This document shows positions 11,301 to 63,706 of a stretch of 64,000 bases of DNA, in pieces. The stretch is from Schmidtea polychroa (lineage: Eukaryota). The notes below the pieces were generated by a model. That model saw only the letters and a program-made list of their open reading frames with translations. It searched no databases and had not been told where the DNA came from. Each line of letters opens with the position of its first letter. The first letter of the stretch is position 1. The stretch is from assembly GCA_044892525.1 (NCBI GenBank), contig CM097885.1, positions 14,572,001 through 14,636,000 on the forward strand, given 5' to 3'. Both the position numbers and the translations under genes were made by a program.

Positions 11301-14300
11301 TTAGGACTCTGTTCAATTACCGGGTTAATAATCAGTAGAAAATGTCACCAAAGAACCAATACCATTTTAGTCACTTGCCTTGTGAGCTGCAGTACAACTA
11401 ATAACCCTGCAAGTTCCATCGGATCCATTACTTGATTTCTGTGAGGGTTCGAGTGGTAAAACTTGGCATGGTGAAGCATGCAAGTTGAAAAATATTCCCA
11501 AGAAAGCTTATTATGATGCCCTGGAATGAAATATTTCAGCTATTAGATCAGTGAAGGAGAAACTTATATAATTTATTAGCCATATTTATGAAACCTGATA
11601 ATTTGATATGTATATGCAACTTTTATCAATACTCGATCCTCGCTGTGACTTTTTTGAATGACTTTGACTAACTTATAATGACCTTCACCGATATTTCTAA
11701 CAATAACCTATTCCAGCTGCTTTTTACATGGTTCTTAATTATTATGTAATTCCTATTTCAATTGACTTTGACACACTTATCAATATTTCTAACTTCAATG
11801 ACCTTGACCTATTTCAAATAACCTTGATTTATTTTTAATGACCTTGACTTGAATGGCCTTTTACTAATTTGGACGACCTTGTGTAATAAACTTGACTTAC
11901 TTTCGAAAACTTTAACCAATATTTATAACTTACTTGAATGACCTTGACCTAATTTAGACAACCTTGACCAATATTTCTAATTTACTTTATTGACGTTTAC
12001 AAATTTCAAACGACCTTGACCTACATTTCTAACAGTAACCTACCTGAGTGACCTTGACTACCTTTAAACCGCTTTCAGCGCCTCTGTAACACCGCGTGAC
12101 AGATAAAAGTGCTTACTAAATGAGTTATTGTTGATGAAATTTAATGAGAATATTTCATATGGAAATGGAAATTATAAAGAGAAAACAGAAACCGCTTACC
12201 AATCAGATTGCTGTTGAACATATTGTAAATATAAACCGCCACGCGTTCATTTATGCACAACCCTTTCAACATGAAGAGGAAATTCAACAGAAACTCTGGA
12301 TTATCGATCAAATCTCCACAGTCTCGAATGAATTTAAAAAGCATCGACTGTCGATATGAACAATTGGATTTGATAGGCAAATTCTTGTAATTGCCAGCCG
12401 ATATCAATGATGCCGATAAATCGGTACCTGTCATGTCTTGCGGAGCCCAGAATTCCAATGTTAAGCTTTCCAAGTATTCATTATTAAATGGAATTGAAGA
12501 TTCAAACAATCTCTCAGGAGGCCCATGCACATTTCCAATTAATCCCATCAATGAGGAGAAATGAGTAACATTCGATGCAGTTCTTAAACTTTCCGTTTTT
12601 AAATCCTTCAGCATTTTCGGCATATAGATAATGAAATCGGTGACCAAATCATGAAAGCATTTTATCCAAATGTTCTGTAAAACAAAGTCAGAAATCTTTC
12701 CCGCGTTGAAATCCGTTTACCTGCTCATGGAATTCTTCAATTCCTGTTATTACGGTCAAAAATGAAAAGATTTCATAGAGATTTCCAGATTCGAGTTTCG
12801 ATTGGTCACAGTCCAAAATATCGTCATAATCTCCGAAATTGGTGGTCATTTGACAACTGTTAATGCATTTTTCCTGTTTCAAATGCGACACCTTCTGTAG
12901 GGAAATAATCCATGCCAGAAATATAACTTGATCAAAATTCTGAACGATATTTTTCATTTCATATTCTTTCATTTCGTTATCATTATTCCCATTAATATTC
13001 TTCGAAAGCAAATCGCTAATATTTCTCGTGTATTCGTCATCAGTAAAGAAAGGATGCGTGAGGCCTAAACCGATGGAATTCAACAAATAAAAAACGCCAT
13101 GAATGAAACCAACAATCCTGTGAATAATTCGTCGCGTTGTTTTCATTAATGACTGGATTAATTGAATCCATCAAACTGACTAGCAAATATACAAAGCATT
13201 TATCTACGATTTTAACTTCCCGCAAAGCAATTGTTTCATTCTCTTCATTCTGTAAAATTTATTCCAATGAAATTTACGAGTCGATTTATTGAGTAAATCA
13301 CATTATTGATTACAATTACTCAAATATAATGTTATCAAACAATATTAATAAGATGAAAAATCAATCATTAAAAGGTAGAAATAAGCAATATCGGGAACTA
13401 GGGCGGTTAATCAATAGGAATACCACAATAACCCTATTTATTGATATCCGTTAGCGGGTATATTTGTAAATATCGATAAAATAGTGCTATCGGTAAAATC
13501 TTTATTATTTTGGTCACCTTTGATCGTTTTCGTTTTTGGTGAAGGAAATTTGAATTTTGATATTTTGTCACATAGAAAATAGATAAAATATCGATAAAAT
13601 AGTGTAAAAAGCAGTCAATGATAGATCAAACGCATTTTATATAGTTTTGGACTCACGGATCGTGTCACAGCGAAGCCCAAAGCTAAGCGCAATAGTTATA
13701 GAGGCGGTTAATGACAAGCAGTGATTATATCCATTAAATTTACTGGTTTTTTGATTTGCTATCGCTGATTGGTTGAATTTATAATGAATGTTTCTGTATG
13801 ATTACAGCAATATATCGATAATTACCCCCCGAATAATTCGCATGGCGTTCCATTTGGCAATGTTATTCCCATTGATTGAAGCGTTTCATTTATTAAATAC
13901 GTATTAATATGTAGGATAATAAATAGGACAGCCCGTGTTACCCTCACCCCCCCACGCGCTCCACCCGCCTGCTACAGCCACCGCTACTAATGAAATATAT
14001 AATTATATAATAATTGCCCTAATAAATGTTCATAATTAATTATCTACATTAATAATTCACTAAACTATTCAAATATTAAGCAAAACAATTACCTTGATTT
14101 CTTTGTTGCTTTCCTTATAAAATTCCCGCATAAATTCGATTAATAATTTTGTATCAGCCGTATTAAGTGGACATTTGAAGCTTCGTAACAAAATACATTC
14201 AGCCAGTGTTTCTTTAATGCTTTGAAAAATTAAAAAAAACCGACGCCTGTGCCTAGCTGTTCCTAGAGCTCGTTGAGATTCCAGTAATTCGATTTCTTTA

Positions 14301-14949
14301 TTTATGTCTAGATTTTTTAATAAACCGATCAATTTCGGAAATAGGCCATGTTGAAATAAACTATCGCAAAAGGCTTGAGTGAAGTTTACAATTTCCACTG
14401 CTTTTGCATTGTCTGTTGTGATTGTTAAAAATAATTTTAGTAGATTTCGCAGAGCTTCTACTATTGTTTTTTGCGAATTATAATATTGAATTACTGCCAA
14501 TAATCCGCGAGTCATGTCAGGATTTGATGTTCGCTCACTTTCACCTAAGGAGTACAACTAGAGTAAATAAAGAGTACACTAAAATATATAATTTAACCGA
14601 ATAGTAATAATTCAACAGATGTTATTTCATTTAACTTAAATAAATCGCTTATAATTATTGTTTCCTGGATGAAATCTTGAGATAGTGTTATCTTTTGTTG
14701 GAAACCTGGAATTTGAATTGGATCTCTATAAGAATTTAATACTAAATTTCGATCATTTACATTTGAAGCCTATTAAGTTTAGATAAATAAATATGTAATA
14801 AATTAATAATTCACATCATGATCTAATATGTTCAAAAACACAGAACGATTTTTATTTAAAGTTTCAATAAACTCAGGAGCATAATCAAAAAGCTTTTGAA
14901 CAGCTAGTTTGTCAATAATATTGAACAATAAATTTCTAATTTCAAGCAT
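2318..14949 (-). CDS. NUP205: Nuclear pore complex protein Nup205, multi-exon (start codon approximate)
   Basis: Minus-strand ORF blocks from 14069-14557 down to 2318-2655 read as Nup205-like peptides in the expected order (PDMTRGLLAVIQYY, RALGTARHRR, QPTPNLGQYLMGF, KTCLHSLL, YLNSQGYLKH, ESCCFLIWYH). Adjacent blocks are joined by short GT-AG introns, and the last intron is 2656-4030. Family assigned by recalled similarity, not by a search. Confidence 0.88.
2660..4020. repeat. AT-rich degenerate tandem repeat filling the last Nup205 intron
   Basis: Same gagtctagaaat / aaactgaatt / aaaatcgaaa motifs repeated at about 2865, 3247 and 3523. Confidence 0.7.
11630..12070. repeat. Degenerate GACCTTGAC-containing tandem repeat in a Nup205 intron
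   Basis: About ten occurrences of (tg)accttgac-like motifs with irregular spacing. Confidence 0.65.
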
Positions 14950-15173
14950 TTCTAATGTTGAATATTTTAAACTAAAACCAATATTTAAACAAAATAAATT
15001 TCATTAAAAGAATATTAGTTTCATAAATAATTTATTCATCAACCAGTTAACTGAAAGAAAAAGATTTTTAATTTCAATATAAATAATTTGACAGAATTAT
15101 TAATAAATTCATAATTTTTGAGAGTATGTAAAGTATAGGAAGTAAGCCACGTCTGATTTTGAAATATAAAAAC

Positions 15174-15880: not shown

Positions 15881-16534
15881 TAAAAATCAGAAAAAGTAAA
15901 ACTAAGAAGGAAAATGTTAAATTAAAATTATTTCATGATTAAATTTTGTAAAATTAAAAGTGAAATTTAAATTTTTTGAAATATATTAGAATTAAAATGG
16001 TTTAAAATAAAAATGAATATTTTAATGTTAATTTTGAAATAAAATAATTTTTGTTAAAATTGCAATTCAAGTATGAATGTGGTATGTTTACGGTATGTTG
16101 ATATTGGTTGAAATTAAAATTTATATAAAGAAAATGTCGCAAGAATATTTGTTTATAAAAGCTGTTTTAAAAATGCAATGAAATATTATAGTAGGTAGTT
16201 AGTGGCCTACGGGAACAATAGGGGGGGGTAAAAATGTTGCAAACTTTTGATTGCATAACTTTTTCCGTAGACATTTTTTGATTACATAATTGTTGCTGTA
16301 ATGCCCAATGTATTCTGGGATTTTAAATACAAATTTTTTTTTTTTTTTTTTTTTTTTTTAATAAACAAGCCAAGGATAAATATTATTTGGGTGGGTCTCC
16401 TTGGTCCTGAGAATTTCAATAGAAAAAGGTAGTCTTCAATAAAAAAGCATGGATTTTTCACACTATAGAGAGGGGACCTTCTTGGTCATGAGAATTTCAA
16501 TAGAAAAGGTGGTTTACATTAAAAAACGCATAGT

Positions 16535-17170
16535 AAATTTTTAAAATAAAGCTAATTATGGTCCTAAAAAATTAAATTACAGTAAATGATGGGTCTAAAA
16601 ATTTAAGTAAATCAAGGTTCAGATTTATTTTTGAAATAAAGTAAATTATGGTCTAAATAAGTAAATTATGGGCTAAGATTTTTCAATTAAAGTAAATAAT
16701 GGTTCTAAAAAATTAAATTACAGTAAATTATGGTCCAAATTTTAAAATTAAAGTAAATTATGGTTCTTAAAAATTAAATTAAAGTAAATTATGGTCCTAA
16801 AAAATTAAATTACAGTAAATAATGGTCAAAAATTTTAAAATTAAAGTAAATTAAGGTTCTAAAATTTAAATTAAAGTTAATTAAGGTCCAAATTTTTAAA
16901 TTAAAGTAAATTAAAGTAAATAATGGTTCTAAAAAATTAAATTAAAGTAAATAATGGTCCTAAAAAATTAAATTACAGTAAATAATGGTCAAAAATTTTA
17001 AAATTAAAGTAAATTAAGGTTCTAAAATTTAAATTAAAGTTAATTAAGGTCCAAATTTTAAAATTAAATAATCAATGGTAAAAAAAATTTAAATTAAAGT
17101 TAAATAAGTAAATTAAAGTAATATTTTTTAAATAAGTAAATTAAAGTAATGTAATAAGTAAATTAAAGTA
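16535..17170. repeat. Subterminal ~30-bp tandem repeat array (aaattaaagtaaattatggtc...), mirrored at about 31190-31760
   Basis: Many imperfect copies of agtaaattatggtc/agtaaattaaggt at about 30-33 bp spacing. Confidence 0.85.
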
Positions 17171-17357
17171 AGATTTTTAAATTTATTAACAAAAATAGAA
17201 GGTGTTTGAGAATTGAAATTTTTTAATGGAAATTTTAATGAATTATTTTTTAAGTAATTTTTAATAGAAATTTTTATGAATAATTTTCAATGGAAATTTT
17301 TAATGGAAATTTTAATAGAATAATTTTTAAGATAATTTTTAATGAAAATTTTTATGA

Positions 17358-17395
<38 letters not shown>

Positions 17396-17582
17396 TAATA
17401 TTAATAATATATCAACCAAATACTATACAACACATAAAAAATTAACTAAACACATAAAAATAACTAGACACATAACAAAACATATAAACATTAACTAAAC
17501 ACATAAAAATGAACTAGACACATAACAAACATAAAAATTTACCAAATAACAAATGTAAAGATATAAAATTTATTCAATAAAA

Positions 17583-20500
17583 TTAGTCCTCATCGGACAA
17601 AATAACGTCATCGATATCGATGTCATCTTCTTCATTAAATTCTTCCTCATCTTCTCCATCATTTTCTCCATCATTTTCTTCCTCATCTTCTCCATCATTT
17701 TCTCCAACATTTTCTGAAACATTTTCTGCAACAATTTCTCCAACATTTTCTCCAATATTTAATTCACTTAATCTTACATGCCCATATGCAAGACTAGTAT
17801 TTTTCCCCACCCAAACCCTTTTGTCATCTTTGTTAGTTAGTGCTATTTTTGTGTTTTTAATTGTAAAAATTTGATGATTTTTGCTTGTTATTTTAGTCTG
17901 AGGAACCGAAAAAATCTGGTTAGTGTTATAACAATCGAGGTATGACTGATGTTTTATGTCACTACCTTTCAATGTTACACCTTTTTGCCTTTTTTGTTTC
18001 ATCATCACCCAACAAGCTATAACATTTAGGTCTAAGAAAAACCCACTCCTTATATTTAAGACCTTTATTCTCGTCTTTGAACTTTCCAATGACTGAATCA
18101 AGGTTCTTGCTATATAAGGAATGACAACTATTGTAATTGGAAGTATCCAATAAATTATCTCGAATCATTGCAGGTAAAAGAACCTCAAGTTTGCAGTTAA
18201 TGACTTCGAGGAAAAAAGAATCTGTATCACCAGCAACGATATTAATTTTACAATTAAACTCATTGCGAAATGATTCCAGATCCTTATATTGCAATTCATA
18301 CATTCTAAGTTTAGATAGATCAAGTACAGATTGACCAATGTAACTCGGTCTATCTAAACATATAGAATCTGAATTCAATAATGTTGCAATTAAATTATCT
18401 GCTATTTTAATAGATTTTTTAAAAGTCGGTTTTGACGAATATTTAACTAATTTACCGGCAGTTGTACAAAGACGAAGATTCATTCTTCTCTTTAAATTTT
18501 CAACTGTTTTGCCGTATAAACTGTTATTTAGCAATTTATAATAATTTTTATCTAAGTTATTTACGCTTTTTGATCTTAATTCGGTATTTGTATCTATATA
18601 TTTTTTAAAAATTGGTGATTGCTTAAATCTTACACCCCTATTTACACGTGTTACTTTAACACCAAGTTCCAAATATAATTTTAATAATCTCCAATGAATA
18701 ACATAATTAGATTTTGGAAGATGAGTTAATAATAATTTTTCAACCTTAGACCGAGCAGGTTTCATTTTTTCAGCAGCTACAGGGAAATCATCCAACTTAT
18801 CATGAAGCTCAGAAGGAATTACAAGATCAACTTCAAGTGTGTATCCATAAGACAAAGATTCAAGATTTAAATTCCTACATTCATCCATTATTTTATCAAA
18901 TCCATCAAGAACCCAACAAAATTCGCCACAAGGTAATGATTGACTTAAAGCCCACCCATAAAGATTATTAATATCTATATAAAGTAACTCGGTGTTCTCG
19001 TCGGTTTTTACGTAATGCTTATTCACAAAAGTAAGACCGCCTCTTATTCCACCCTCATAAAAGCTAAACATTTCGTTTTCAGTTATGAGTTCAATTGGTT
19101 CATTTAAAGATATTAATGCAGAAGACCAAGACATGCCTGGAATTCCGAAATAATTCAAAGGCTCTAATCTATTGTGAGCAATTGATTTCAACCTAAACTG
19201 ATGAAAGAAATCAGCCAAAAGAAAACAATCAAGTTTTAGGTAGATCATCATATAATCTAATAAAGTTCTGCAATTAGATTCTACCCAAATCTCCTGAGCT
19301 TTTTCATACTCAAGCTCAGTGACACCCTCCCAGATTGGTGGTAATTCATACGTAGTTTGTAGAACATCTAAAGAAGTGGCGAAATTATAAGGGAAGATTC
19401 CTTTTTCACTTACTATGGTGCCAGAAAAAGCAGAATTAGTAAAAGGCAAAGAATTCAAAGTTTTGACTGCTTTAGCCAAAGAATCATTGACAAATTGATA
19501 TGAATCAATGAATCTTATGCTAATTTTGCCTAAATGAGCAATCAAAGATATAAATTTTTCCGTAGTTATTGGGATGCACCCTAAATTCCAATTTTTAAAT
19601 TTATTTAATCCATATTTAAGTATATGATGCATATCGTATCCCTTCAAGTTGTGAAATACGATAGGCAAAATTTTATTTATTTTTCTATTTACGTTACATG
19701 TGCTACAAGCTGCACCCAAGTATTTGCCCGTAAAATGATCGTGATCTCTAACAGGATCCACGATAGATTTCAAACAAAGATAACAAACCGTTGAATTAAT
19801 GAATTGTTGTTGCTCAATTTTAGTTAATTTAATCATTGGTTTCCTACCCATTTTATAATAAAAAGGAAGAACCTTATTTAATGCTATATCCTCTATAGCA
19901 CTTAAAAAACTCTCGACGCAATCTAAACCTATAAACTGTTGATAGGATTTAGATCCGTCAAAGTTATTTACTAGTAAAAGACCAGCAGATATTGGCATGT
20001 GTCGCTGAAAATGATCATTATCACAAGGTAAAATAGCCTCAAAATCGGCATAAACTACGAAAGGAGGAGTTACTGTTTTCGACCAGTCAGTAAACTGTAA
20101 GAATTTATTTTGAGGGAAAGTATAAAGAGTTGTTCCTAATTGATTGCGTTTGCATAATATTTCATGTTTTTCTAGTGCGTTTCTATTATTAAACCCATTC
20201 AAACACCGATGGCACCATAATGAACGTATGCGTGTAGGACAACTAGTGTTTATGTGGCAATTCAGTAACCTATTTAAATTGCTTATAGCAATGTAATGGA
20301 AATTGTTCCCTTTATTTAATAATAGTAAATTAATTACTGTTCCATTTAAAACTTTGGAACGATGTATAATGTCTAAATGGGGGTGTTTTAAAACGTAATT
20401 ATCTATTAATTGTTTGTTATTGTCATAAGAAAAAACATTAATTATTAAACCAGGATTTTTGGCCTCGAATTTTCTAATATCTTTTAATTTCATGGGTAAG

Positions 20501-22001
20501 TCCAATGGATTATATATTAACTCAGATAAATTATAACTGGATGTTCTATTTCTATATTGTTTAATAACTTCATCATATTTTAAAATAGCTAAAATGCTAT
20601 ATAAAAAACATGAATCATCGGTGTTTTTTACATTAATTAAACAATATTTATTTTTTAGACAAGTAGGTAGTTCAATGAAACTCCTACCACTTAATCTACT
20701 TAGCCTACTTATCTTTGTTATGGTGAAGTGAATTTCTGTTATTTTTTTTATGATCCAGCTACTTCCTAACTCTGTGATATTACTTATTTTCTCGTTTAGT
20801 TCCCTAATGCCTTCGTCAAAAAATGAGGCAGTTAAAGGTTTTGCGTAATTCGAAATATTATTAACCTTTATTTCCCCATCTTTTTCAAATTCGATTGTTA
20901 TTCCGAATTGAATTTTGACGGAGCCTAATTCGTTAATAATATCTCGTAATTTTATAATTAATTGTTCAGGAAATATTATTTCCTTTATATTTAAGTCGCT
21001 AGTATTTAAACTTAATATTTGATGGGTACCCCTTAGATCTTTTTGTATTATGGGAACATTACCCCCTATTTGTATTATATTTAATCCATCCCAAGAATCA
21101 AAGGAATTGAATAATCCGACCTGGGATTCAACAAAAGGCAATCCGACCTGGGATTCAACAAAAGATAATCCGTCCTGGGATTCAACAACCAATCCATCAT
21201 TGGATTCAACAAAAGACAATCCAGCCTGGGATTCAACCTCTAATCCGACCTGGGATTCAAAAGAAGAAGTATCTAATTTAATTTTTTTATTTGTATTATT
21301 TTTTTCTATAGTTGATGGTCTTTTAAAAACACTATCTTTTTTAAAATTAAACCTATCTAAATGATGTTTATGTTTATTATAAAAAACGCTATATGTTACA
21401 GGGTCACTAGTCTTACATATGGGACATATAAAAAAAGTTTTATTATAATATTTTTTCGTGTAATAATTCTCCATTATAGAATGGCAATTATTATCATGTT
21501 CTTTCGATGAACAATAATTTGGGTAAAGTATACCTATAAAATAAAAATTTAATAAAAAAATATATATATATATATAATTTAAATGAAATATTTTAATAAA
21601 TGTTTACGCATAAATTTACAAATTTTATTTACTAAAAAAAATAAAAATTTACTAAATTAAAAATATTAACATTTAATTAAATAAAAAATTATATTAAATT
21701 TCCTTTAAATTATATAAAAAAGTAATCAATACTTACATTGTAAATTTTCATTTCGATTTATTGACACATTGACATAATTTTTCTCTTTATTCGTATTACC
21801 TAAATTATTAATTAATTAAATCAATTAATAAAAAATTATGTTTACTTTTTCTTTTCAAATTTCCTTTAATCTTCGATTTTAAATTGTCTTCATTAATATT
21901 ATCTAAATTAATTAATAAATTAATTAATAAATAAATTAAAATTTACCAAATTCCTGAATTTTTCCTCGAACATTCATAACGTTTTCTATTAAAGAATTCA
22001 T
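17583..22001 (-). CDS. Protein-primed family B DNA polymerase (pPolB), left-arm copy, with predicted spliced 5' exons and a C-terminal tail in the +1 frame
   Basis: The 1170-aa ORF 17962-21474 has Exo motifs YADFE, FHNLKGYD and YLKLD, polymerase motifs YIDINNLYG, KLLNNSLYGK and GDTDS, and an endonuclease VII-like insert (CYLC...DHDHFTG...CSTCN). Predicted upstream exons are 21947-22001, 21846-21902 and 21737-21799, with exon 4 starting at 21533. The tail (KGV...KIALTNKDDKR) lies in ORF 17583-18101. Confidence 0.9.
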
Positions 22002-22391
22002 TTTTAAAGGTTAACTATTTGTTAAATGTGACTAATAATTGATCATTGTTTATAGATTATTATTGTTTATAGGAACAAATTCTAACCAATCAAAATCAAG
22101 GAAGGGTAGGGAAAAATATATTACGTTGCGGTATTTTAAAATTAAAATTTATTTTAAAAACACATTTTGACGTTAAAGTCGAGTTATGTAACAAAGACAT
22201 AATAAACTTATTATTTACTACAAATATTTCACCTATCAAATACCTAACTAGAGATGCTATATATTGATTGTTCATAAAAGCAAACTTAATCATAAATTTC
22301 TGTATATTATTTTGTAAATTATTTCTGTAAATTAAATTTTGTATATTATTTCTGTAAATTATCAAGTAAATTTAAAGTTCTTGATAAGGTT

Positions 22392-23517
22392 AAATTAAGT
22401 AATCAATGGTCAAATATTTTAAATAAGTAAATTAAAGTAATAATTTTTAAATAAGTAATGTAATAAGCAAATTAAAGTAAGATTTTAAATTTATTAACAA
22501 AATAATAGAAGGTGTTTGAGAATTGAAATTTTTTAATGAAATTTTTATGGAATAATTTTTAAGATAATTTTTAATGAAAATTTTTATGAAATATTTTTCA
22601 ATGAAAATTTTAAATGAAAACTTTTATGAAATATTTTTCAATGACAATTTTAGAAAAAATTTTTTGAAATAATTTTAGATTGAAATTATGTAAATTAAGT
22701 GATACATTTTTAAATTAAAGTAATCAATGGTCTATATTTTAAACTTCTATATTCGGTAAACAAGGACTAAATTAAGTAAATAAAGGGTTAAATTAAAGAA
22801 AATTATGACTAAGTTAATTAGATTTAAAGAATAATTACCTTTTCATTTAACACTACAGTGTTAATTTTTACCATTTTAGAATAATATTTTTTATCAAAGT
22901 TCTTATCTTGATTTATTTAATTTTAATTGAATGTAATGACAAAATAGAGCGTGTTGTCTTCAATTTTAATGAATTAATTTGAAAGATTATTTAGATAAAT
23001 GTTGGTGTTTAAGGTATTCATTAGTAATTATTTTTTTAGAGTTGATGGTTTTTGTGAATTTTTATCATTTTCGTGAATATCATGTGGATTGAATGAATAT
23101 TTAAAAATTTTAAGTTAGTTCTAAATAAATTTAATTAATTTCTTGATAATTGGATGCATTTTAATGGATTGGTTTTTTTTTAAATAAAAATTATTTTTAA
23201 TGACAGTCAGGTTAATAATCATGTGATAGGATATAACTTTGTAATAATATTTTTTTTTCATATTTCTAAGAATTTCATGTTGATTTATTAAAAAATTTAA
23301 AGTTTTAATGATGATTTTAATTGAATTTCTTGATAATTTGTTAAATTTTAAATAAAAATTAATTTTTTTTTAAATGACTGTTATGTTAATAATTAAGTAA
23401 TTGGTTTAATTTTAGATGACTTTGTAATGCATTTGACTAAATATTTTTTTTTCAATAATTTTCTAAGAATATTTACACATTGATGAACTTTTTAAAAAAA
23501 ACATAAGCTAAGAAAAC
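22392..23517 (+). repeat. 1.13-kb direct repeat, copy 1 (spacer of element A)
   Basis: Near-identical to 24841-25968, from aaattaagtaatcaatggtc to aacataagctaagaaa. Confidence 0.92.
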
Positions 23518-23801
23518 AGTAGGTAGATAGTAGCCCACTGCAGCAATGACCCCCCACCCCGGGAGGGGGGTGGGGGGGGGGGGGTTCTGCTGCAACTTTT
23601 GATTGCGCAATTGTTGCAACTAGTTTTTTTTTGTTGTATTTTTTTTTTGTATTATTACGCAATTGTATTATTTTTTTTTCTAGAATTTTCAATACAAAAA
23701 AAAAACAAGTTGCAACAATTGCGCAATCAAATGTTGCAGCAAAAAAAAAGATGCAGCATAAAAAAAGGCTTGCATTTGCAGCGGGCTCCTATCTACCTAC
23801 T
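23518..23801. repeat. Internal 284-bp hairpin cassette with Polinton-like termini
   Basis: Outer stem AGTAGGTAGATAGTAGCCCACTGC...GCAGCGGGCTCCTATCTACCTACT. Inner stem gctgcaacttttgattgcgcaattgttgcaact...agttgcaacaattgcgcaatcaaatgttgcagc. Long G tract at 23561-23584. Confidence 0.88.
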
Positions 23802-23849
23802 ATAAACAGCGTCTGAGAAATGAAAATTTTTTCAATGACAATTTTACAT

Positions 23850-24840
23850 TAAAATTATGGTCTAAAATTTTCAATTAAGTAAATTATGGTCTAAAATTTT
23901 CAATTAAGTAAATTAAGGTCTAAAATTTTCAATTAAGTAAATTATGGTCTAAAATTTTCAATTAAGTAAATTAAGGTCTAAAATTTTAAATTAAAGTAAA
24001 TTATGGTATATATTTTTAAACTTAAGTAAATTAAAGATAAATAAGCAAATTAAGGTCTAAAATTTCCAATTAAGTAAATTAAGGTCTAAAATTTTAAATT
24101 AAAGTAAATTATGGTATATATTTTTAAACTTAAGTAAATTAAAGATAAATAAGCAAATTAAGGTCTAAAATTTCCAATTAAGTAAATTAAGGTCTAAAAT
24201 TTTCAATTAAGTAAATTATGGTCTAAAATTTTCAATTAAGTAAATTAAGGTCTAAAATTTTAAATTAAAGTAAATTATGGTATATATTTTTAAACTTAAG
24301 TAAATTAAAGATAAATAAGCAAATTAAGGTCTAAAATTTCCAATTAAGTAAATTAAGGTCTAAAATTTTCAAATAAGTAAATTATGGTCTAAAATTTTAC
24401 ATGAAATTATGGTCTAAAATTTTCAACTAAGTATATTATGGTCTAAAATTTTAAATTAAAGTAAATTAAAGATAAATAAGCAAATTAAGGTCTAAAATTT
24501 TCAATTAAGCAATTTAAGGTCTAAAATTTTCAAATAAGTAAATTATGGTCTAAAATTTTACATGAAATTAAGGTTTAAAATTTTCAATTGAGTTCTAAAA
24601 TAAAGTCTAAAATTTCAATTAAGTAAATTATGGTATATATTTTTAAACTTAAGTAAATTAAAGATAAATAAGCAAATTAAGGTCTAAAATTTCAATTAAG
24701 TAAATTATGGTCTAAAAATTTCAATTAAAGTAAATTAAGGTCCAAATTTGAATTAAAGTTAATTAAGGTTCAAAATTTAAAATTAAAGTAAATAAATGTT
24801 CTAAAAAATTAAATTAAAGTAAATTAAGGTCCAAATTTTT
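23850..24840. repeat. 29-bp tandem repeat array (aaattttcaattaagtaaattaaggtcta)
   Basis: Direct reading shows many units with some higher-order blocks; related to the subterminal arrays of the arms. Confidence 0.9.
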
Positions 24841-25968
24841 AAATTAAGTAATCAATGGTCAAATATTTTAAATAAGTAAATTAAAGTAATAATTTTTAAA
24901 TAAGTAATGTAATAAGCAAATTAAAGTAAGATTTTAAATTTATTAACAAAATAATAGAAGGTGTTTGAGAATTGAAATTTTTTAATGAAATTTTTATGGA
25001 ATAATTTTTAAGATAATTTTTAATGAAAATTTTTATGAAATATTTTTCAATGAAAATTTTAAATGAAAACTTTTATGAAATAATTTTCAATGACAATTTT
25101 AGAAAAAATTTTTTGAAATAATTTTAGATTGAAATTATGTAAATTAAGGGATACATTTTTAAATTAAAGTAATCAATGGTCTATATTTTAAACTTCTATA
25201 TTCGGTAAACAAGGACTAAATTAAGTAAATAAAGGGTTAAATTAAAGAAAATTATGACTAAGTTAATTAGATTTAAAGAATAATTACCTTTTCATTTAAC
25301 ACTACAGTGTTAATTTTTACCATTTTAGAATAATATTTTTTATCAAAGTTCTTATCTTGATTTATTTAATTTTAATTGAATGTAATGACAAAATAGAGCG
25401 TGTTGTCTTCAATTTTAATGAATTAATTTGAAAGATTATTTAGATAAATTTTGGTGTTTAAGGTATTCATTAGTAATTATTTTTTTAGAGTTGATGGTTT
25501 TTGTGAATTTTTATCATTTTCGTGAATATCATGTGGATTGAATGAATATTTAAAAATTTTAAGTTAGTTCTAAATAAATTTAATTAATTTCTTGATAATT
25601 GGATGCATTTTAATTGATTGGTTTTTTTTTTAAATAAAAATTATTTTTAATGACAGTCAGGTTAATAATCATGTGATAGGATATAACTTTGTAATAATAT
25701 TTTTTTTTCATATTTCTAAGAATTTCATGTTGATTTATTAAAAAATTTAAAGTTTTAATGATGATTTTAATTGAATTTCTTGATAATTTGTTAAATTTTA
25801 AATAAAAATTAATTTTTTTTTTAAATGACTGTTATGTTAATAATTAAGTAATTGGTTTAATTTTAGATGACTTTGTAATGCATTTGACTAAATATTTTTT
25901 TTTCAATAATTTTCTAAGAATATTTACACATTGATGAACTTTTTAAAAAAAACATAAGCTAAGAAACC
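24841..25968 (+). repeat. 1.13-kb direct repeat, copy 2
   Basis: Near-identical to 22392-23517; abuts the inner end of the right arm. Confidence 0.92.
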
Positions 25969-26269
25969 AGTTAACCTTATCAAGAACTTTAAATTTACTT
26001 GATAATTTACAGAAATAATATACAAAATTTAATTTACAGAAATAATTTACAAAATAATATACAGAAATTTATGATTAAGTTTGCTTTTATGAACAATCAA
26101 TATATAGCATCTCTAGTTAGGTATTTGATAGGTGAAATATTTGTAGTAAATAATAAGTTTATTATGTCTTTGTTACATAACTCGACTTTAACGTCAAAAT
26201 GTGTTTTTAAAATAAATTTTAATTTTAAAATACCGCAACGTAATATATTTTTCCCTACCCTTCCTTGAT

Positions 26270-26335
26270 TTTGATTGGTTAGAATTTGTTCCTATAAACA
26301 ATAATAATCTATAAACAATGATCAATTATTAGTCA
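26270..26335 (+). promoter_or_regulatory. Putative Pol II promoter of pPolB (mirrored at about 22029-22094)
   Basis: Reverse CCAAT (gattgg, about 26273), TATAAA at 26293 and 26310, and Inr-like ttagtc at about 26329, all just upstream of ATG 26363. The AT-rich context makes chance matches plausible. Confidence 0.4.
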
Positions 26336-26362
26336 CATTTAACAAATAGTTAACCTTTAAAA

Positions 26363-29300
26363 ATGAATTCTTTAATAGAAAACGTTATGAATGTTCGAGG
26401 AAAAATTCAGGAATTTGGTAAATTTTAATTTATTTATTAATTAATTTATTAATTAATTTAGATAATATTAATGAAGACAATTTAAAATCGAAGATTAAAG
26501 GAAATTTGAAAAGAAAAAGTAAACATAATTTTTTATTAATTGATTTAATTAATTAATAATTTAGGTAATACGAATAAAGAGAAAAATTATGTCAATGTGT
26601 CAATAAATCGAAATGAAAATTTACAATGTAAGTATTGATTACTTTTTTATATAATTTAAAGGAAATTTAATATAATTTTTTATTTAATTAAATGTTAATA
26701 TTTTTAATTTAGTAAATTTTTATTTTTTTTAGTAAATAAAATTTGTAAATTTATGCGTAAACATTTATTAAAATATTTCATTTAAATTATATATATATAT
26801 ATATTTTTTTATTAAATTTTTATTTTATAGGTATACTTTACCCAAATTATTGTTCATCGAAAGAACATGATAATAATTGCCATTCTATAATGGAGAATTA
26901 TTACACGAAAAAATATTATAATAAAACTTTTTTTATATGTCCCATATGTAAGACTAGTGACCCTGTAACATATAGCGTTTTTTATAATAAACATAAACAT
27001 CATTTAGATAGGTTTAATTTTAAAAAAGATAGTGTTTTTAAAAGACCATCAACTATAGAAAAAAATAATACAAATAAAAAAATTAAATTAGATACTTCTT
27101 CTTTTGAATCCCAGGTCGGATTAGAGGTTGAATCCCAGGCTGGATTGTCTTTTGTTGAATCCAATGATGGATTGGTTGTTGAATCCCAGGACGGATTATC
27201 TTTTGTTGAATCCCAGGTCGGATTGCCTTTTGTTGAATCCCAGGTCGGATTATTCAATTCCTTTGATTCTTGGGATGGATTAAATATAATACAAATAGGG
27301 GGTAATGTTCCCATAATACAAAAAGATCTAAGGGGTACCCATCAAATATTAAGTTTAAATACTAGCGACTTAAATATAAAGGAAATAATATTTCCTGAAC
27401 AATTAATTATAAAATTACGAGATATTATTAACGAATTAGGCTCCGTCAAAATTCAATTCGGAATAACAATCGAATTTGAAAAAGATGGGGAAATAAAGGT
27501 TAATAATATTTCGAATTACGCAAAACCTTTAACTGCCTCATTTTTTGACGAAGGCATTAGGGAACTAAACGAGAAAATAAGTAATATCACAGAGTTAGGA
27601 AGTAGCTGGATCATAAAAAAAATAACAGAAATTCACTTCACCATAACAAAGATAAGTAGGCTAAGTAGATTAAGTGGTAGGAGTTTCATTGAACTACCTA
27701 CTTGTCTAAAAAATAAATATTGTTTAATTAATGTAAAAAACACCGATGATTCATGTTTTTTATATAGCATTTTAGCTATTTTAAAATATGATGAAGTTAT
27801 TAAACAATATAGAAATAGAACATCCAGTTATAATTTATCTGAGTTAATATATAATCCATTGGACTTACCCATGAAATTAAAAGATATTAGAAAATTCGAG
27901 GCCAAAAATCCTGGTTTAATAATTAATGTTTTTTCTTATGACAATAACAAACAATTAATAGATAATTACGTTTTAAAACACCCCCATTTAGACATTATAC
28001 ATCGTTCCAAAGTTTTAAATGGAACAGTAATTAATTTACTATTATTAAATAAAGGGAACAATTTCCATTACATTGCTATAAGCAATTTAAATAGGTTACT
28101 GAATTGCCACATAAACACTAGTTGTCCTACACGCATACGTTCATTATGGTGCCATCGGTGTTTGAATGGGTTTAATAATAGAAACGCACTAGAAAAACAT
28201 GAAATATTATGCAAACGCAATCAATTAGGAACAACTCTTTATACTTTCCCTCAAAATAAATTCTTACAGTTTACTGACTGGTCGAAAACAGTAACTCCTC
28301 CTTTCGTAGTTTATGCCGATTTTGAGGCTATTTTACCTTGTGATAATGATCATTTTCAGCGACACATGCCAATATCTGCTGGTCTTTTACTAGTAAATAA
28401 CTTTGACGGATCTAAATCCTATCAACAGTTTATAGGTTTAGATTGCGTCGAGAGTTTTTTAAGTGCTATAGAGGATATAGCATTAAATAAGGTTCTTCCT
28501 TTTTATTATAAAATGGGTAGGAAACCAATGATTAAATTAACTAAAATTGAGCAACAACAATTCATTAATTCAACGGTTTGTTATCTTTGTTTGAAATCTA
28601 TCGTGGATCCTGTTAGAGATCACGATCATTTTACGGGCAAATACTTGGGTGCAGCTTGTAGCACATGTAACGTAAATAGAAAAATAAATAAAATTTTGCC
28701 TATCGTATTTCACAACTTGAAGGGATACGATATGCATCATATACTTAAATATGGATTAAATAAATTTAAAAATTGGAATTTAGGGTGCATCCCAATAACT
28801 ACGGAAAAATTTATATCTTTGATTGCTCATTTAGGCAAAATTAGCATAAGATTCATTGATTCATATCAATTTGTCAATGATTCTTTGGCTAAAGCAGTCA
28901 AAACTTTGAATTCTTTGCCTTTTACTAATTCTGCTTTTTCTGGCACCATAGTAAGTGAAAAAGGAATCTTCCCTTATAATTTCGCCACTTCTTTAGATGT
29001 TCTACAAACTACGTATGAATTACCACCAATCTGGGAGGGTGTCACTGAGCTTGAGTATGAAAAAGCTCAGGAGATTTGGGTAGAATCTAATTGCAGAACT
29101 TTATTAGATTATATGATGATCTACCTAAAACTTGATTGTTTTCTTTTGGCTGATTTCTTTCATCAGTTTAGGTTGAAATCAATTGCTCACAATAGATTAG
29201 AGCCTTTGAATTATTTCGGAATTCCAGGCATGTCTTGGTCTTCTGCATTAATATCTTTAAATGAACCAATTGAACTCATAACTGAAAACGAAATGTTTAG

Positions 29301-30781
29301 CTTTTATGAGGGTGGAATAAGAGGCGGTCTTACTTTTGTGAATAAGCATTACGTAAAAACCGACGAGAACACCGAGTTACTTTATATAGATATTAATAAT
29401 CTTTATGGGTGGGCTTTAAGTCAATCATTACCTTGTGGCGAATTTTGTTGGGTTCTTGATGGATTTGATAAAATAATGGATGAATGTAGGAATTTAAATC
29501 TTGAATCTTTGTCTTATGGATACACACTTGAAGTTGATCTTGTAATTCCTTCTGAGCTTCATGATAAGTTGGATGATTTCCCTGTAGCTGCTGAAAAAAT
29601 GAAACCTGCTCGGTCTAAGGTTGAAAAATTATTATTAACTCATCTTCCAAAATCTAATTATGTTATTCATTGGAGATTATAAAAATTATATTTGGAACTT
29701 GGTGTTAAAGTAACACGTGTAAATAGGGGTGTAAGATTTAAGCAATCACCAATTTTTAAAAAATATATAGATACAAATACCGAATTAAGATCAAAAAGCG
29801 TAAATAACTTAGATAAAAATTATTATAAATTGCTAAATAACAGTTTATACGGCAAAACAGTTGAAAATTTAAAGAGAAGAATGAATCTTCGTCTTTGTAC
29901 AACTGCCGGTAAATTAGTTAAATATTCGTCAAAACCGACTTTTAAAAAATCTATTAAAATAGTAGATAATTTAATTGCAACATTATTGAATTCAGATTCT
30001 ATATGTTTAGATAGACCGAGTTACATTGGTCAATCTGTACTTGATCTATCTAAACTTAGAATGTATGAATTGCAATATAAGGATCTGGAATCATTTCGCA
30101 ATGAGTTTAATTGTAAAATTAATATCGTTGCTGGTGATACAGATTCTTTTTTCCTCGAAGTCATTAACTGCAAACTTGAGGTTCTTTTACCTGCAATGAT
30201 TCGAGATAATTTATTGGATACTTCCAATTACAATAGTTGTCATTCCTTATATAGCAAGAACCTTGATTCAGTCATTGGAAAGTTCAAAGACGAGAATAAA
30301 GGTCTTAAATATAAGGAGTGGGTTTTTCTTAGACCTAAATGTTATAGCTTGTTGGGTGATGATGAAACAAAAAAGGCAAAAAGGTGTAACATTGAAAGGT
30401 AGTGACATAAAACATCAGTCATACCTCGATTGTTATAACACTAACCAGATTTTTTCGGTTCCTCAGACTAAAATAACAAGCAAAAATCATCAAATTTTTA
30501 CAATTAAAAACACAAAAATAGCACTAACTAACAAAGATGACAAAAGGGTTTGGGTGGGGAAAAATACTAGTCTTGCATATGGGCATGTAAGATTAAGTGA
30601 ATTAAATATTGGAGAAAATGTTGGAGAAATTTTTGCAGAAAATGTTTCAGAAAATGTTGGAGAAAATGATGGAGAAGATGAGGAAGAAAATGATGGAGAA
30701 AATGATGGAGAAGATGAGGAAGAATTTAATGAAGAAGATGACATCGATATCGATGACGTTATTTTGTCCGATGAGGACTAA
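26363..30781 (+). pseudogene. pPolB, right-arm copy, with a private nonsense mutation
   Basis: Matches the left copy except TTA>TAA at 29680-29682 and two visible missense changes (IADN>IVDN, EIVAE>EIFAE). Predicted exons 26363-26417, 26462-26518, 26565-26627 and from 26831. AATAAA at 30790 follows the stop at 30781. Confidence 0.9.
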
Positions 30782-30968
30782 TTTTATTGAATAAATTTTA
30801 TATCTTTACATTTGTTATTTGGTAAATTTTTATGTTTGTTATGTGTCTAGTTCATTTTTATGTGTTTAGTTAATGTTTATATGTTTTGTTATGTGTCTAG
30901 TTATTTTTATGTGTTTAGTTAATTTTTTATGTGTTGTATAGTATTTGGTTGATATATTATTAATATTA

Positions 30969-31006
<38 letters not shown>

Positions 31007-32292
31007 TCATAAAAATTTTCATTAAAAATTATCTTAAAAATTATTCTATTAAAATTTCCATTAAAAATTACCATTGAAAATTATTCATAAAAATTTCTAT
31101 TAAAAATTACTTAAAAAATAATTCATTAAAATTTCCATTAAAAAATTTCAATTCTCAAACACCTTCTATTTTTGTTAATAAATTTAAAAATCTTACTTTA
31201 ATTTACTTATTACATTACTTTAATTTACTTATTTAAAAAATATTACTTTAATTTACTTATTTAACTTTAATTTAAATTTTTTTTACCATTGATTATTTAA
31301 TTTTAAAATTTGAACCTTAATTAACTTTAATTTAATTTTTAGAACCTTAATTTACTTTAATTTTAAAATTTTTGACCATTATTTACTGTAATTTAATTTT
31401 TTAGAACCATTATTTACTTTAATTTACTTTAATTTAAAAATTTGGATCATAATTTACTTTAATTTAAATTTTTGGACTGTAATTCAAAAATTTTGACCAT
31501 AATTTACTTTAATTTAATTTTTAAGAACCATAATTTACTTTAATTTTAAAATTTGGACCATAATTTACTGTAATTTAATTTTTTAGAACCATTATTTACT
31601 TTAATTGAAAAATCTTAGCCCATAATTTACTTATTTAGACCATAATTTACTTTATTTCAAAAATAAATCTGAACCTTGATTTACTTAAATTTTTAGACCC
31701 ATCATTTACTGTAATTTAATTTTTTAGGACCATAATTTGCTTTATTTTAAAAATTTACTATGCGTTTTTTAATGTAAACCACCTTTTCTATTGAAATTCT
31801 CATGACCAAGAAGATCCCCTCACTATAGTGTGAAAAATCCATGCTTTTTTATTGAAGACTACCTTTTTCTATTGAAATTCTCAGGACCAAGGAGACCCAC
31901 CCAAATAATATTTATCCTTGGCTTGTTTATTGAAAAAAAAAAAAAAAAAAAAAAAATTTTGTATTTAAAATCCCAGAAAACATTGGGCATTACAGCAACA
32001 ATTATGTAATCAAAAAATGTCTACGGAAAAAGTTATGCAATCAAAAGTTTGCAACATTTTTACCCCCCCCCCCCCCCCCTATTGTTCCCGTAGGCCACTA
32101 ACTACCTACTTATTATTTTGAATTTATTTAGTCTTAGTAATTTATTTGATGATAGAATAATTGATTGTTATAGCTTTTAACACAATAAATGGAGAAATGG
32201 GAGAAAACACCAAAGGATAGTGGAGGTGATTCACACGGAAAGCCAAGGTAGCAAGCCAAATACTGCACATAACTAGCCATAATAATAATAAC

Positions 32293-39490: not shown

Positions 39491-40009
39491 ATGAACAGAT
39501 CAAAATCTTTTTTCGAAATCTTCCAATGTTCCAGGCGGTGGAGATTCTAATTTTTTAATGGTTGGTCCCAATTATAGAGTAGGTAAAAAAATTGGTTGTG
39601 GAAATTTTGGTGAACTTCGATTAGGTATTATAATAAATATAATCACTTTTAAAATGTTTCCTTATTTTCATACTGTTTCAGGGAAAAATTTATATACGAA
39701 CGAACATGTTGCTATAAAATTAGAACCCATGAAAACCAGAGCACCCCAATTACATTTAGAATACAGATTTTATAGAATGCTCAATTCTAACAGTTACTAT
39801 TTCATTTATTATATTATGGTTGTGATTAATAATTTTAACAATTTTTAGGTAATCCAATAACAGGTTTTCCAAAAGTCTTTTACTTTGGACCATGCGGTCG
39901 ATACAATGCCTTAGTTTTAGAATTACTGGGTCCGTCTTTGGAAGATTTGTTTGATCATTGCAATAGGCAATTCTCGTTAAAAACAGTATTGATGTTAGCC
40001 ATTCAATTA
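39491..40009 (+). CDS. CSNK1G: Casein kinase 1 gamma (gilgamesh-like), first three coding exons; the remainder is not seen in the window
   Basis: [53 protein letters not shown]...|[30 protein letters not shown]...[15 protein letters not shown] introns at 39625-39681 and 39793-39848, with a donor GTGAGT at 40010. Confidence 0.93.
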
Positions 40010-40641
40010 GTGAGTTCTTTTTAATTATTTAAATTTAAAAACTAATATTATTCAATTTTGTTTAAATTGGAAATAATTTATTTGATAAAAATTAAATAGC
40101 TCAGTTTGTGAATTAATTATATTTATTAAATATACATGTTATAAATTATTATCTGAATTCTTAATAGTTAATATTCATTTTGCATTTATATTCGACATGA
40201 ATGTTTAATCAGTTCCACAAGACCACAGCAAGATTGGTGGTCAATCTAAACGCTAATTCGCCTGTCATTATTGCGAACTCGTTTTTCATTAGTTGTTTAC
40301 AAGGCCATTTAATTTCATTGGACAAATTGGTAGCTCTATCAGTGTGCTATATTCCAATGATTTACAGTTGCTAAATTAATCATTTTTAATTTATATTTGA
40401 TTTCTATTAATTAGAAGCATGCATTTCATGTTAGTTGGAATTATTGAGAAATTTGCTTGCTTAGTAAGGATTTGTGAGCCATTTCTATTCTTTTTCGCTG
40501 GTAGGCAAGCCACTAAATATAATTGAAACTAATAATAATAATTACAAAATTATCACAATAAAAATAATAAAAAGTCGGATTGATAATAAATTGAAAAACA
40601 ATAAATGTAAAATTATAAAAATATTGATAACAAGAAATAAT

Positions 40642-41796: not shown

Positions 41797-42659
41797 ACAA
41801 CCAGCTTATTCCACAAGGGAATAAAAGACACAATAAAGTACAATTAAATCACTAGATGCAGATCTTGATGTAGAATAAATATTATCTCTCAACTTCCAAT
41901 TTTACGTTTTTTTATATATGATAATTTTCGATTTTGATATCTGGATTTTGCACCTTTATCACCGATTTTTTTTCTGAGGTCTTGGACGAGAAGACATCTA
42001 TCATATCGAATGAAGCTTTCTTTCAAATATATTTTGCATTGTCCATCAACAAATATTTGATAACATACAACAACAGATTAAACTAATGCATATCTGAATG
42101 CATAAATTTGAGAGTTCTTTCCAGCACTTCAACTCGGATTTTTATATCCAATTGTTTTACTCTTTCGTCGATACGAGTCAACAAAAATTCCTGGAGTTTA
42201 GCTTTCTAAGGAGTTGGTGCGACTACAATTATATCGTGTCAGCTAACTATCGTTGACAACAATGTTTATATCACTTTTTTGGGATATAACTCTACCTCGA
42301 TCATTACTACTATTATCATTAGCATTAATCTTAATTGGTTAAGATGAAATGATAAGATAATAAGATAGCCACATCCCACTAGAGGCAGATCATTGCGTTA
42401 AATAAATATTATCTCTTACCTTCCACTTTAACTTTTTTTTGACATCTGATATTTTTCGATTTTTGATATCCGGCTCTTGCAGCTTGATCACCGATTTTTC
42501 TATTGCTATCAGACTCCGATAACAGACACCGAAATTTCATCACCATCAAACAATTAAGTAGTAACTTCATTAATTTATTTTCTTTCATTTTCAGTATTTA
42601 AATAAATTTTTGTTTTAGGAATTTTACTATTGAAAATCCAAAATAATTTAGCTCCAGTC

Positions 42660-45600: not shown

Positions 45601-46740
45601 CAACATGAATATTATGAATACATAATTATAATTTATCAGCCACATCATGAGCTGCGAGCATAGCGGCATATTGACTGCCTTCATCTCATCGACTTTGACT
45701 TTCAAAGAACCAGTAATTTTGACGAAAGTTTAAGCTCCTGTAACGTCGGTAACTTGAATGAAGGTGTCATTGTTTCCAGCATAGATGTGAGAGATACTGA
45801 AATTTTCTTTACCATCAACCAATTTAGGTCCCAAAGTGGTAACTTCATTAATTTCATTAATTTTAAATTTCTTTTTTTAAATTTTTTTTATTTTTTTAAT
45901 ATTTTTCTTTCATTTTCAGTATTTAAATCAAACAAAATAGTAAATGTTATCACTGACATTTCATGTTTTTACAATCTTCTACCACCACGAAAGCCTTTCC
46001 TTCTTGTCGAATAATGAGGAACTTCGGTGATGTTTACGGATCTTCCAATCTTCACTCCAGCTCTTGCTATGACTCATAACAGCTTGAGATGGAGCTGGTG
46101 ATCTCTTTACTTCTTCACCTACTCTGATTTCGATGTGGACTGCGTTGATACCGAGTAATTATCATTTATCAGCCACATCATGAGCTGCGAGCATAGCGGC
46201 ATATTGACTGCAATCATCCCTGTCGGCTTTGACTTTCAAAGAACCAGTAATTTTGACGAAAGTTTCAGCTCGTCTGTGGCTGCTGATATCCTGATTATCA
46301 ACCTAATGTCTTTCTTCTTTGATATTTCTGATTTATATTCAAAATATTTAAACAATTTTTATCTATTTTGCTGTTTAAAATTTCAAATTTCATATTCTAA
46401 AATTACTTTTTTTAATAAATTAATTTCTCTACTTTTAAAATTTTTAATATTTCATTTCTATCTTTTATAAATAAAACCTTTTTTTCATTTTTAATATTTA
46501 AATCAAACTTTTTTTTTAAAAATCCAAAATTATATTAAATGTTATCACGGAGATTACATGGATATACAATCTTCGATTACGACGACGAACTTTCCTTCTT
46601 GTGGAATCATGAGGAAAGGTTTCGATTTTTCCTATCTTCATTCCACCTCTCTCCATGTGTCTCAAGGCAGTTGTTGTAGCTTGAGATGGAGCTGGTGATC
46701 TCCTTAATCCTCCATCAACTCTGATTTCAATGTGGTCTAC
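42660..46740 (-). pseudogene. RPS14: Tandem array of nine decayed 40S ribosomal protein S14 (uS11) pseudogene copies
   Basis: Minus-strand peptides [33 protein letters not shown] and STRRKGGRGGRRL*. 3' ends lie at about 42690, 43020, 43374, 43920, 44472, 44963, 45485, 45971 and 46566. Confidence 0.92.
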
Positions 46741-63039: not shown

Positions 63040-63706
63040 ATTAATATTATTAATATTATTTCTTCTTAACAATTTTTATTTATTGCTATCAATATTTTTA
63101 TAATTTTATATTTATTGTTTTTCAATTTATTATCAATCCGTGTTTTTATTATTTCTATTGTGACATTTTTGTAATTATTATTATTAGTTTCAATTATATT
63201 TTGTGGCTTGTTTACCAGCGAAAAAGAATAGAAATGGCTCACAAATCCTTACTGAGCAAGCAAATTTCTCAATAATTCCAACTAACGTGAAATGCATGCT
63301 TCTAATTAATAGAAATCAAATATAAATTAAAAATGATTAATTTAGCAACTGTAAATCATTGGAATATAGCACACTGATAGAGCTACCAATTTGTCCAATG
63401 AAATTAAATGGCCTTGTAAACAACTAATGAAAACCTAGTTCGCAATAATGACAGGCGAATTAGCGTTTAGATTGACCACCAATCTTGCTGTGGTCTTGTG
63501 GAACTGATTAAACATTCATGTCGAATATAAATGCAAAATGAATATTAACTATTAAGAATTCAGATAATAATTTATAACATGTATATTTAATAAATATAAT
63601 TAATTCACAAACTGAGCTATTTAATTTTTATCAAATAAATTATTTCCAATTTAAACAAAATTGAATAATATTAGTTTTTAAATTTAAATAATTAAAAAGA
63701 ACTCAC

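Follow-up and report, generated by a model that had tools for sequence, protein, structure and literature searches.

The core genes of vertebrate and nematode Polintons (Mavericks) are described as intronless, the elements being bounded by terminal repeats of 100-1500 bp (PMC8097293; 10.1101/2022.07.12.499685; 10.1101/2023.08.22.554363) with end motifs of the AG/AGT...CT/ACT types (PMC8097293), and the Polinton polymerase pPolB has a TP-vOTU-exonuclease-palm layout, in which terminal-protein (TP) and active vOTU domains come ahead of the exonuclease (PMC11161782). Planarian Polintons are reported to be de-repressed upon knock-down of the piRNA pathway (PMC8532177). Dinoflagellate maverick-polinton-like elements bear introners, young transposon insertions which were mostly gained after integration (10.1101/2025.03.18.643946). 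The adenovirus E2B mRNAs for polymerase and terminal protein share a leader spliced from a distant promoter (PMC9499273), and the snapback genomes of adeno-associated virus (AAV) are packaged by-products of virus preparation (PMC10924063). Here we describe a 15.9-kb palindromic Polinton derivative with two polymerase genes, located in a 64,000-nt stretch of the Schmidtea polychroa genome (the window; assembly GCA_044892525.1, contig CM097885.1, forward-strand positions 14,572,001 to 14,636,000; coordinates below are those of the window, and labels beginning with L or P are our own). We consider it probable that its polymerase gene is spliced in the style of host genes and that it stands in a fold-back-derived palindrome inserted by a helper.

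The polymerase gene of the right arm with its predicted leader, and the mirror copy in the left arm, comprise:

26274..26339, plus strand: putative RNA polymerase II (Pol II) promoter, with a CCAAT box at 26274, two CTATAAAC boxes at 26292 and 26309 and an initiator-like TCACATT at 26333
26363..26417, plus strand: leader exon 1, 55 coding nt from the first ATG past the initiator-like motif
26418..26461, plus strand: intron 1, 44 nt, GTAAAT..TAG, phase 1; 40-68 nt in other copies
26462..26518, plus strand: leader exon 2, 57 nt
26519..26564, plus strand: intron 2, 46 nt, GTAAAC..TAG, phase 1; the least supported of the three
26565..26627, plus strand: leader exon 3, 63 nt, the final base being base 1 of a conserved Cys codon
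26628..26830, plus strand: intron 3, 203 nt, GTAAGT..TAG, phase 1; position common to families with 66-68% core identity, where it measures 630-1426 nt
26831..30781, plus strand: main pPolB exon of the right arm, interrupted twice, by an internal stop (end at 29682) and by a frameshift near 30400
26831..27051, plus strand: putative tandem zinc module at the main-exon start, C-x6-C-x4-H-x3-C, then C-x2-C...H-x2-H, a residue pattern only
21474..22001, minus strand: mirror leader with ATG 22001 and introns 21946-21903, 21845-21800 and 21736-21534
17583..21533, minus strand: main pPolB exon of the left arm (PF03175, E 2e-31; weak match to Endonuclease_7); the frame stops early at 17962, with the C-terminal rest in another frame

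The main open reading frame (ORF) encodes a protein-primed family B polymerase (PF03175, E 2.4e-31, 109.6 bits against a cut-off of 25.8, with a weak Endonuclease_7 match), in whose translation OTU-type Cys and His motifs, sequence motifs only, are visible and invariant in one alignment. Neither polymerase gene of the window copy is intact: a frameshift close to the C-terminus cuts both short, to which the internal stop is added in the right arm; many other copies hold open polymerase frames of 1300-1338 codons. A preliminary description of this DNA had placed ATG 26363 and three phase-1 GT-AG introns in front of the ORF, and re-reading the sequence returned the same borders and the same spliced peptide. 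The exons of 55, 57 and 63 nt join 59 nt of exon 4 into 78 stop-free codons before Met 26890, the start chosen by an ORF finder, which falls within the putative zinc module. The mirror copy of the leader is equally present, inside an inverted repeat of 5460 nt with 8 mismatches, none of which touches the leader; the mirrored structure noted in that description belongs to the two arms of a single palindromic element devoid of integrase and capsid genes.

In the proposed course of expression, host Pol II would start near 26335 behind the CCAAT/TATA promoter, the spliceosome would, as comparison between copies suggests, remove the three phase-1 introns, and translation from ATG 26363 would yield about 58 variable low-complexity residues before the last junction completes the first Cys of the Cys/His module. 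The leader introns have the GT-AG ends and the host-like size and composition of U2-type spliceosomal introns, with a GC content of 4.5-8.7% versus 17.5-27% in the three small exons. That the short ones match host introns in size holds roughly: when the neighbouring host gene Nup205 was modelled crudely as a spliced path, 28 introns were predicted, of which 15 measure 70 nt or less (40-65 nt, median 49). The stretch 26159-26287 is 79-89% identical to the region upstream of the polymerase in another palindromic family (L148:6424-6596), although the polymerases themselves are only 57% identical, which suggests exchange of modules; a motif resembling the promoter region also precedes the gene in the metagenome locus L179.

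An open spliced path is by itself little proof, since 316 open GT-AG paths with up to four introns lead from ATG 26363 into the ORF, and from this locus alone the structure does not exceed chance. Further observations count against the leader as drawn. An ab initio model with ad hoc parameters, whose assumed exon GC of 30% is too high for the leader exons, picked another path, which begins at an ATG further upstream, has 26418-26830 as its single intron and skips exons 2 and 3; this path outscored only 198 of 200 shuffles. Splice sites are broken in 4 of 30 close loci, namely both arms of two elements, and the parsing pattern used for copies, which depends on the anchors being intact, failed on 7 of 54 sources. 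Leader exons (0.015-0.036) and introns (0.024-0.051) have similar substitution rates, and exons 1-3 show a weak excess of synonymous changes, with 8 synonymous to 17 nonsynonymous ones (p about 0.07, transition bias uncorrected) and 8 to 18 in a set of 12 copies at a greater distance. The length of intron 2 is almost constant, and indels would gather in the introns anyway because these are AT-rich and repetitive. Three complete copies of family A carry an in-frame Met inside the proposed last intron, family B has upstream introns of phase 0, and a duplicate origin of the leader exons is not significant in the window copy (242-519 of 2000 shuffles). A junction probe for genomic copies lacking intron 3 gave 0 matches, so that processed copies lend no support. 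Of 12 sequencing runs listed, 5 contain part of the stretch and none is recorded as RNA, which speaks neither for nor against splicing.

It is the comparison across copies and families which lifts the leader above chance. The exon-3 donor motif occurs at 727 sites in the genome, with 0 for the control, and the family of the window element is several hundred copies strong. All six splice dinucleotides are intact in the other 26 of the 30 close loci and the ATG in all 30. From 54 sources, 47 were parsed into 41 distinct sequences, every one of which retains exon lengths of 55/57/63/59 nt and an open frame; intron 1 ranges from 40 to 68 nt in them, intron 3 from 193 to 226 nt and intron 2 is always 46 nt. 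In the 12 more distant copies (84-93% identity), indel bases number 4 in 2518 exon positions versus 418 in 3311 intron positions, almost all in intron 3. The exon-biased conservation anticipated for such copies is thus seen for indels, the substitution rates not being clearly lower in exons. Intron 1 is supported by its length variation between copies beside fixed exons, and intron 2, which has the least support, is suggested by composition, internal stops and the parallel with other families.

The last junction can be followed furthest. Other polymerase families of this genome show 68%, 68%, 66% and 57% core identity to that of the window. Of 18 loci examined, 15 contain the N-terminal motif, and in each of the 15 an AG stands exactly before GY plus one codon plus LYxxYC, with a T/GT(A/T)AG donor (slash at the splice site) 202-1426 nt upstream of the acceptor; this placement argues that splicing creates the Cys codon. 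The frame upstream of the motif is open and free of Met in 12 of the 15. Of the three loci without it, one copy has lost the exon and two belong to the 57% family, in which the Cys is intronless and short intron candidates lie nearby. Two further short intron candidates were noticed within the N-terminal coding region of that family (L148:6943-6984 and about 7043-7083). Its occurrence at one and the same position in diverged families makes the last intron an old feature of this genome's Polintons, and we are highly confident that intron 3, with donor 26628 and acceptor 26830, is real.

Relatives from elsewhere point to the residue which this junction would restore. The closest database proteins are metagenome sequences with 44-59% identity, and 13 matches in viral collections are distant (24-33%); of 80 metagenome loci, the 9 closest with upstream DNA were examined. 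In L174, L175, L177, L180 and P0019 a Met and a few residues are followed by the first Cys in unbroken DNA or protein, and the family-C locus L148 encodes it without an intron as well; in an alignment of nine sequences, the Cys, His and Cys which come next, as well as one Cys further on, never vary. Splicing from 26628 to 26830 would accordingly restore a conserved residue of C-x5/6-C-x4/5-H-x2/5-C, followed by a C2H2-like motif, and the N-terminal module putatively binds zinc with the first Cys as a ligand. Searches of the module returned a best Pfam E of 0.021, a predicted model with pLDDT 68 and a best structural Z of 3.4, so that Pfam, Atlas, AlphaFold and fold searches gave no usable match, a known fold still being possible; a protein search, a weak one, with the first 73 residues of exon 4 found no match among longer proteins. 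In the homologues P0012 and P0035 the Cys/His module is tandemly repeated.

If the leader were instead a non-coding promoter or 5′ untranslated region, the protein would start at Met 26890 with the second, C2H2-like zinc motif only. Seven database homologues are indeed called from the equivalent Met (P0001, P0002, P0012, P0013, P0017, P0036, P0042), and the absence of the zinc module from L176, L179, L183 and L185 indicates that it is dispensable. Those calls stem, however, from an ORF finder blind to introns, the acceptor occupies one fixed codon position in all 15 loci, and the 19 codons before Met 26890 are conserved at the protein level across families; the ratio of nonsynonymous to synonymous substitution rates (dN/dS) of exon 4 upstream of this Met is 0.15 and 0.33 against two families (18-19 codons), a coding constraint which argues for a start further upstream. 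A start at Met 26890 is therefore very improbable.

A milder alternative accepts only the last intron as drawn and has the upstream leader spliced differently or alternatively, for instance by skipping of exon 2, use of other acceptors or initiation at a later ATG, the 78-residue form being one among several. It draws on the 136 open paths that still end in the Cys-forming junction, on exon 1 with its two further ATGs, on phase-1 exons which can all be skipped without a frameshift, and on a leader whose sequence is unconserved between families and whose upstream short intron lies in the 5′ untranslated region in complete family A. It sits poorly with exon lengths that stay fixed at the drawn borders in all 41 sequences despite changes of intron 1 by 4, 12 or 24 nt, with the two short introns being the sole candidates in the window to pass a simple AT-rich intron filter, and with family E, which likewise has three short exons and an intron 2 region aligning with intron 1 of the window (83% over 59 nt). 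We hold this alternative to be quite unlikely, and all three introns as drawn to be quite probable from the sequence comparisons. The claimed 78-residue extension is thus upheld as a probable spliced leader; as a whole it is no conserved domain, and only its last 20 or so residues are kept between families.

Leaders with short AT-rich introns were modelled in three other families of this genome and in three metagenome contigs, with 17 of 19 modelled introns in phase 1. The modelled phases are 1,1,1,1 in family E, 1,1 in complete family A, where the first of the two lies in the untranslated region, and 0,0,1 in family B; upstream of the polymerase in the contigs L176, L179 and L185, from which the module is missing, lie separate phase-1 introns of 40-52 nt. 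The distance from first Met to junction ranges from 27 to 139 residues across families, and leader sequence and exon number vary too. Because exons of the same phase keep the frame, the upstream micro-exons may turn over freely, and tandem duplicates of adjacent leader exons in two relatives, L150 and L176 (0 of 2000 shuffles each), offer a possible route for it.

Introns also appear in further core genes of these Polintons. The protease motif (PF00770) was present in 6 of 17 loci searched, from three families, and in all six the open frame lacks a Met and needs a phase-2 intron of 36-54 nt after ATG-NN. A 42-nt intron splits the TDxG-EF motif of the integrase in 3 of 5 loci tested; one of the other two began past the site and family E is outside the pattern. 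We infer from these frames that the polymerase, protease and integrase genes all carry introns. Complete elements of about 17 kb hold TBP-like, ATPase (PF04665), protein-X-like, integrase, protease (PF00770) and RING genes and were flanked by 6-bp duplications in 3 of 3 cases; their 408- and 132-residue ORFs gave no match to a capsid Pfam family. The complete family and that of the window have the same end motif and polymerase cores whose DNA is 98% identical, but differ in their leaders.

Among the cargo of the complete elements are TBP-like genes (PF00352) in two families (L161:8502-8903, L162:7581-8093, L142:3633-4100), a Bcl-2-family gene (PF00452, above cut-off) adjoining the polymerase leader of family B (L142:4761-5216), and in family A a RING-finger gene (L152:4730-5875, minus strand) and an ORF like adenovirus protein X (mu) (PF05829, L162:8870-9253).

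The element which bears the two polymerase genes of the window has the following parts:

16190..32110: the entire element, a palindromic Polinton derivative with polymerase genes only, 15.9 kb, termini AGTAGGTAG...CTACCTACT
16184..16189, plus strand: left 6-bp target-site duplication TATTAT
32111..32116, plus strand: right 6-bp target-site duplication TATTAT
23518..23801: central imperfect palindrome of 284 nt with two terminus-like sequences, the symmetry axis in most copies
22355..23520, plus strand: inner left arm, rearranged here into a direct repeat of 24810-25971 and not its mirror image
23815..24850, plus strand: 29-31-nt tandem repeats like those in the terminal repeats (16530-17100, mirror near 31300-31750)

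Its terminal inverted repeats of the AG/AGT...CT/ACT type and its 6-bp target duplication, within the 5-8 bp of Polintons, are those of a Polinton. Neither the window element nor any of 15 spacer loci gave a tblastn match to the halves of the helper's integrase, a gene present in complete relatives, and ten proteins of the complete family used as queries revealed no packaging ATPase, protease or capsid gene there either; the long ORFs in the spacers are retroelement inserts only. Because integrase and virion genes are absent, the element is a non-autonomous derivative, and its insertion would have been effected in trans by the integrase of a related complete family. Penelope-like insertions (reverse transcriptase plus GIY-YIG; L044, L045) occupy the inner regions of both arms of one palindromic copy.

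Among the first 100 of the 727 listed leader sites, 52 form 26 head-to-head pairs versus 2 other close neighbours, and most pairs are near-complete palindromes around a hairpin of 275-302 nt, the ends of which are 73-78% identical to the end of the complete family; the 284-nt piece of the window folds as DNA at -83 kcal/mol (z -11.6). Flanks are mirrored around the centre in 26 of 28 loci with clean termini. A free-standing miniature inverted-repeat transposable element was considered for the central piece and rejected, such a form being unseen among 30 loci, with element sequence on at least one side wherever termini were clean. Paired ends of whole elements carry an exact 6-bp duplication in 9 of 11 cases, one further pair matching in 5 of 6 positions and one having mirrored flanks. 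The latter (L084/L085, G000:C2:43.77-43.79 Mb) has flanks mirrored over at least 29 nt and not direct, as from mirror copying past the element end or from the axis of a larger palindrome. Between palindromic subfamilies the polymerase core is under purifying selection (dN/dS about 0.1), which exchange with the complete family could also explain.

The two arms of one element differ by a mean of 0.4 substitutions per about 900 nt versus 1.8 to the nearest other element (17 elements), and among substitutions private to one element 13 are found in both arms and 5 in one. Following the likeness to AAV snapback genomes, the palindrome may have arisen by fold-back during strand-displacement replication, the element being copied from one arm, so that both arms would share new mutations. 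We favour such an origin, with copying from one arm, as somewhat the likelier course. Against it, the identity of the arms could stem from gene conversion on the chromosome and the shifted axes from central deletions, palindromes being known to convert and to delete their centres; the palindrome would then be a chromosomal inverted duplication kept alike by conversion, or an artefact of assembly, and the introns, though real, would have nothing to do with it. This explanation would suit the single-arm forms (L156, L273, L277), which have the same leader and target duplications and exist beside palindromes with other axes, but the mirror stops exactly at the element ends within direct duplications, head-to-head pairs far outnumber other close neighbours, and a palindrome of separate make, with ends unlike these and a 6-bp duplication, is formed by a second polymerase lineage, the 57% family. 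Assembly artefact is rejected on account of the target duplications and by the mismatches between arms, which differ at few positions, unlike a read artefact. Conversion of an inverted duplication is on this evidence an unlikely though not negligible explanation. In one single-polymerase form (L273:5856-6794) the left arm is short and leads into the central hairpin, whose flanks are mirrored; it may be a precursor or a deletion product of the palindrome.

Taken more broadly, fold-back replication and splicing lead to a tentative proposal, to which we give somewhat less than an even chance: in one clade of animal Polintons, polymerase, protease and integrase would all depend on the spliceosome, with intron positions predating the split of the families, and the clade would repeatedly yield helper-dependent, polymerase-only snap-back palindromes that turn at a hairpin of two terminus-like sequences, are copied from a single arm outside the chromosome and use the integrase of the helper. 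Kapitonov and Jurka are said to have proposed a single-stranded fold-back intermediate for Polintons in 2006, and we know of no observation of it; if the proposal were true, the palindromes would be a genomic fossil record of this intermediate. Arms more alike than any two elements bear on how Polintons copy themselves, and since the family is so abundant, the polymerase-only palindromes are a testable handle on this long-open question. Core-gene introns that have become fixed would imply that expression has long been nuclear and reliant on the spliceosome, and would offer the host a step at which to control it. Where Polinton genes are sought as single ORFs, the polymerase and protease N-termini and the continuity of the integrase are missed in this clade and intact elements may be scored as broken.

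Around the element, the host gene Nup205 occupies 4835-15080 (minus strand) with many short introns, the element being on the 5′ side of the predicted coding exons at a distance of about 1.1 kb, and reverse transcriptase and RNase H ORFs of a long terminal repeat retrotransposon are found at 162-1271 (plus strand). An inverted repeat pair of 761 nt (98%) at 39880-40640 and 63076-63836, 22 kb apart, possibly marks a second large element and encloses a tandem array with a period of about 500 nt (42600-46700).

Within the literature searched, which did not extend to subscription journals and Repbase reports, no description was met of position-conserved introns in core genes of animal Polintons or, the host group included, of polymerase-only palindromic Polintons; what is added here is that relatives encode the first Cys in unbroken sequence, that one intron appears to be shared by protease genes and another to interrupt the integrase, and that a palindrome with two polymerases has private mutations present in both arms. 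With vertebrate and nematode Polintons the elements have in common the protein-primed family B polymerase, AGT...ACT-type ends and the 6-bp duplication, to which complete relatives add integrase, packaging ATPase and an adenain-like protease. In contrast to the intronless core genes described for those elements, polymerase, protease and integrase here appear to contain short GT-AG introns, and the repeats of the window element, far from the lengths given there, take up almost all of the 16 kb, with the polymerase inside them and no further gene between them. Dinoflagellate introner elements likewise have spliceosomal introns inside Polinton-like elements; the introns here differ in that they are AT-rich, have the size of host introns and keep their position in diverged families, between which their sequences are unrelated.

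The adenovirus polymerase takes its first few residues from an upstream exon. In both systems a related protein-primed polymerase would be made from a spliced message, whereas the gene described here has a dedicated putative promoter, host-sized micro-introns and a junction completing a putative zinc ligand. As in the AAV snapback genomes, a likeness which is structural only, one genome end and the adjoining genes are mirrored around a turning point and the other genes, which a helper would supply, are lost; unlike those by-products, the palindromes of S. polychroa are integrated and heritable, number in the hundreds and have kept the polymerase gene.

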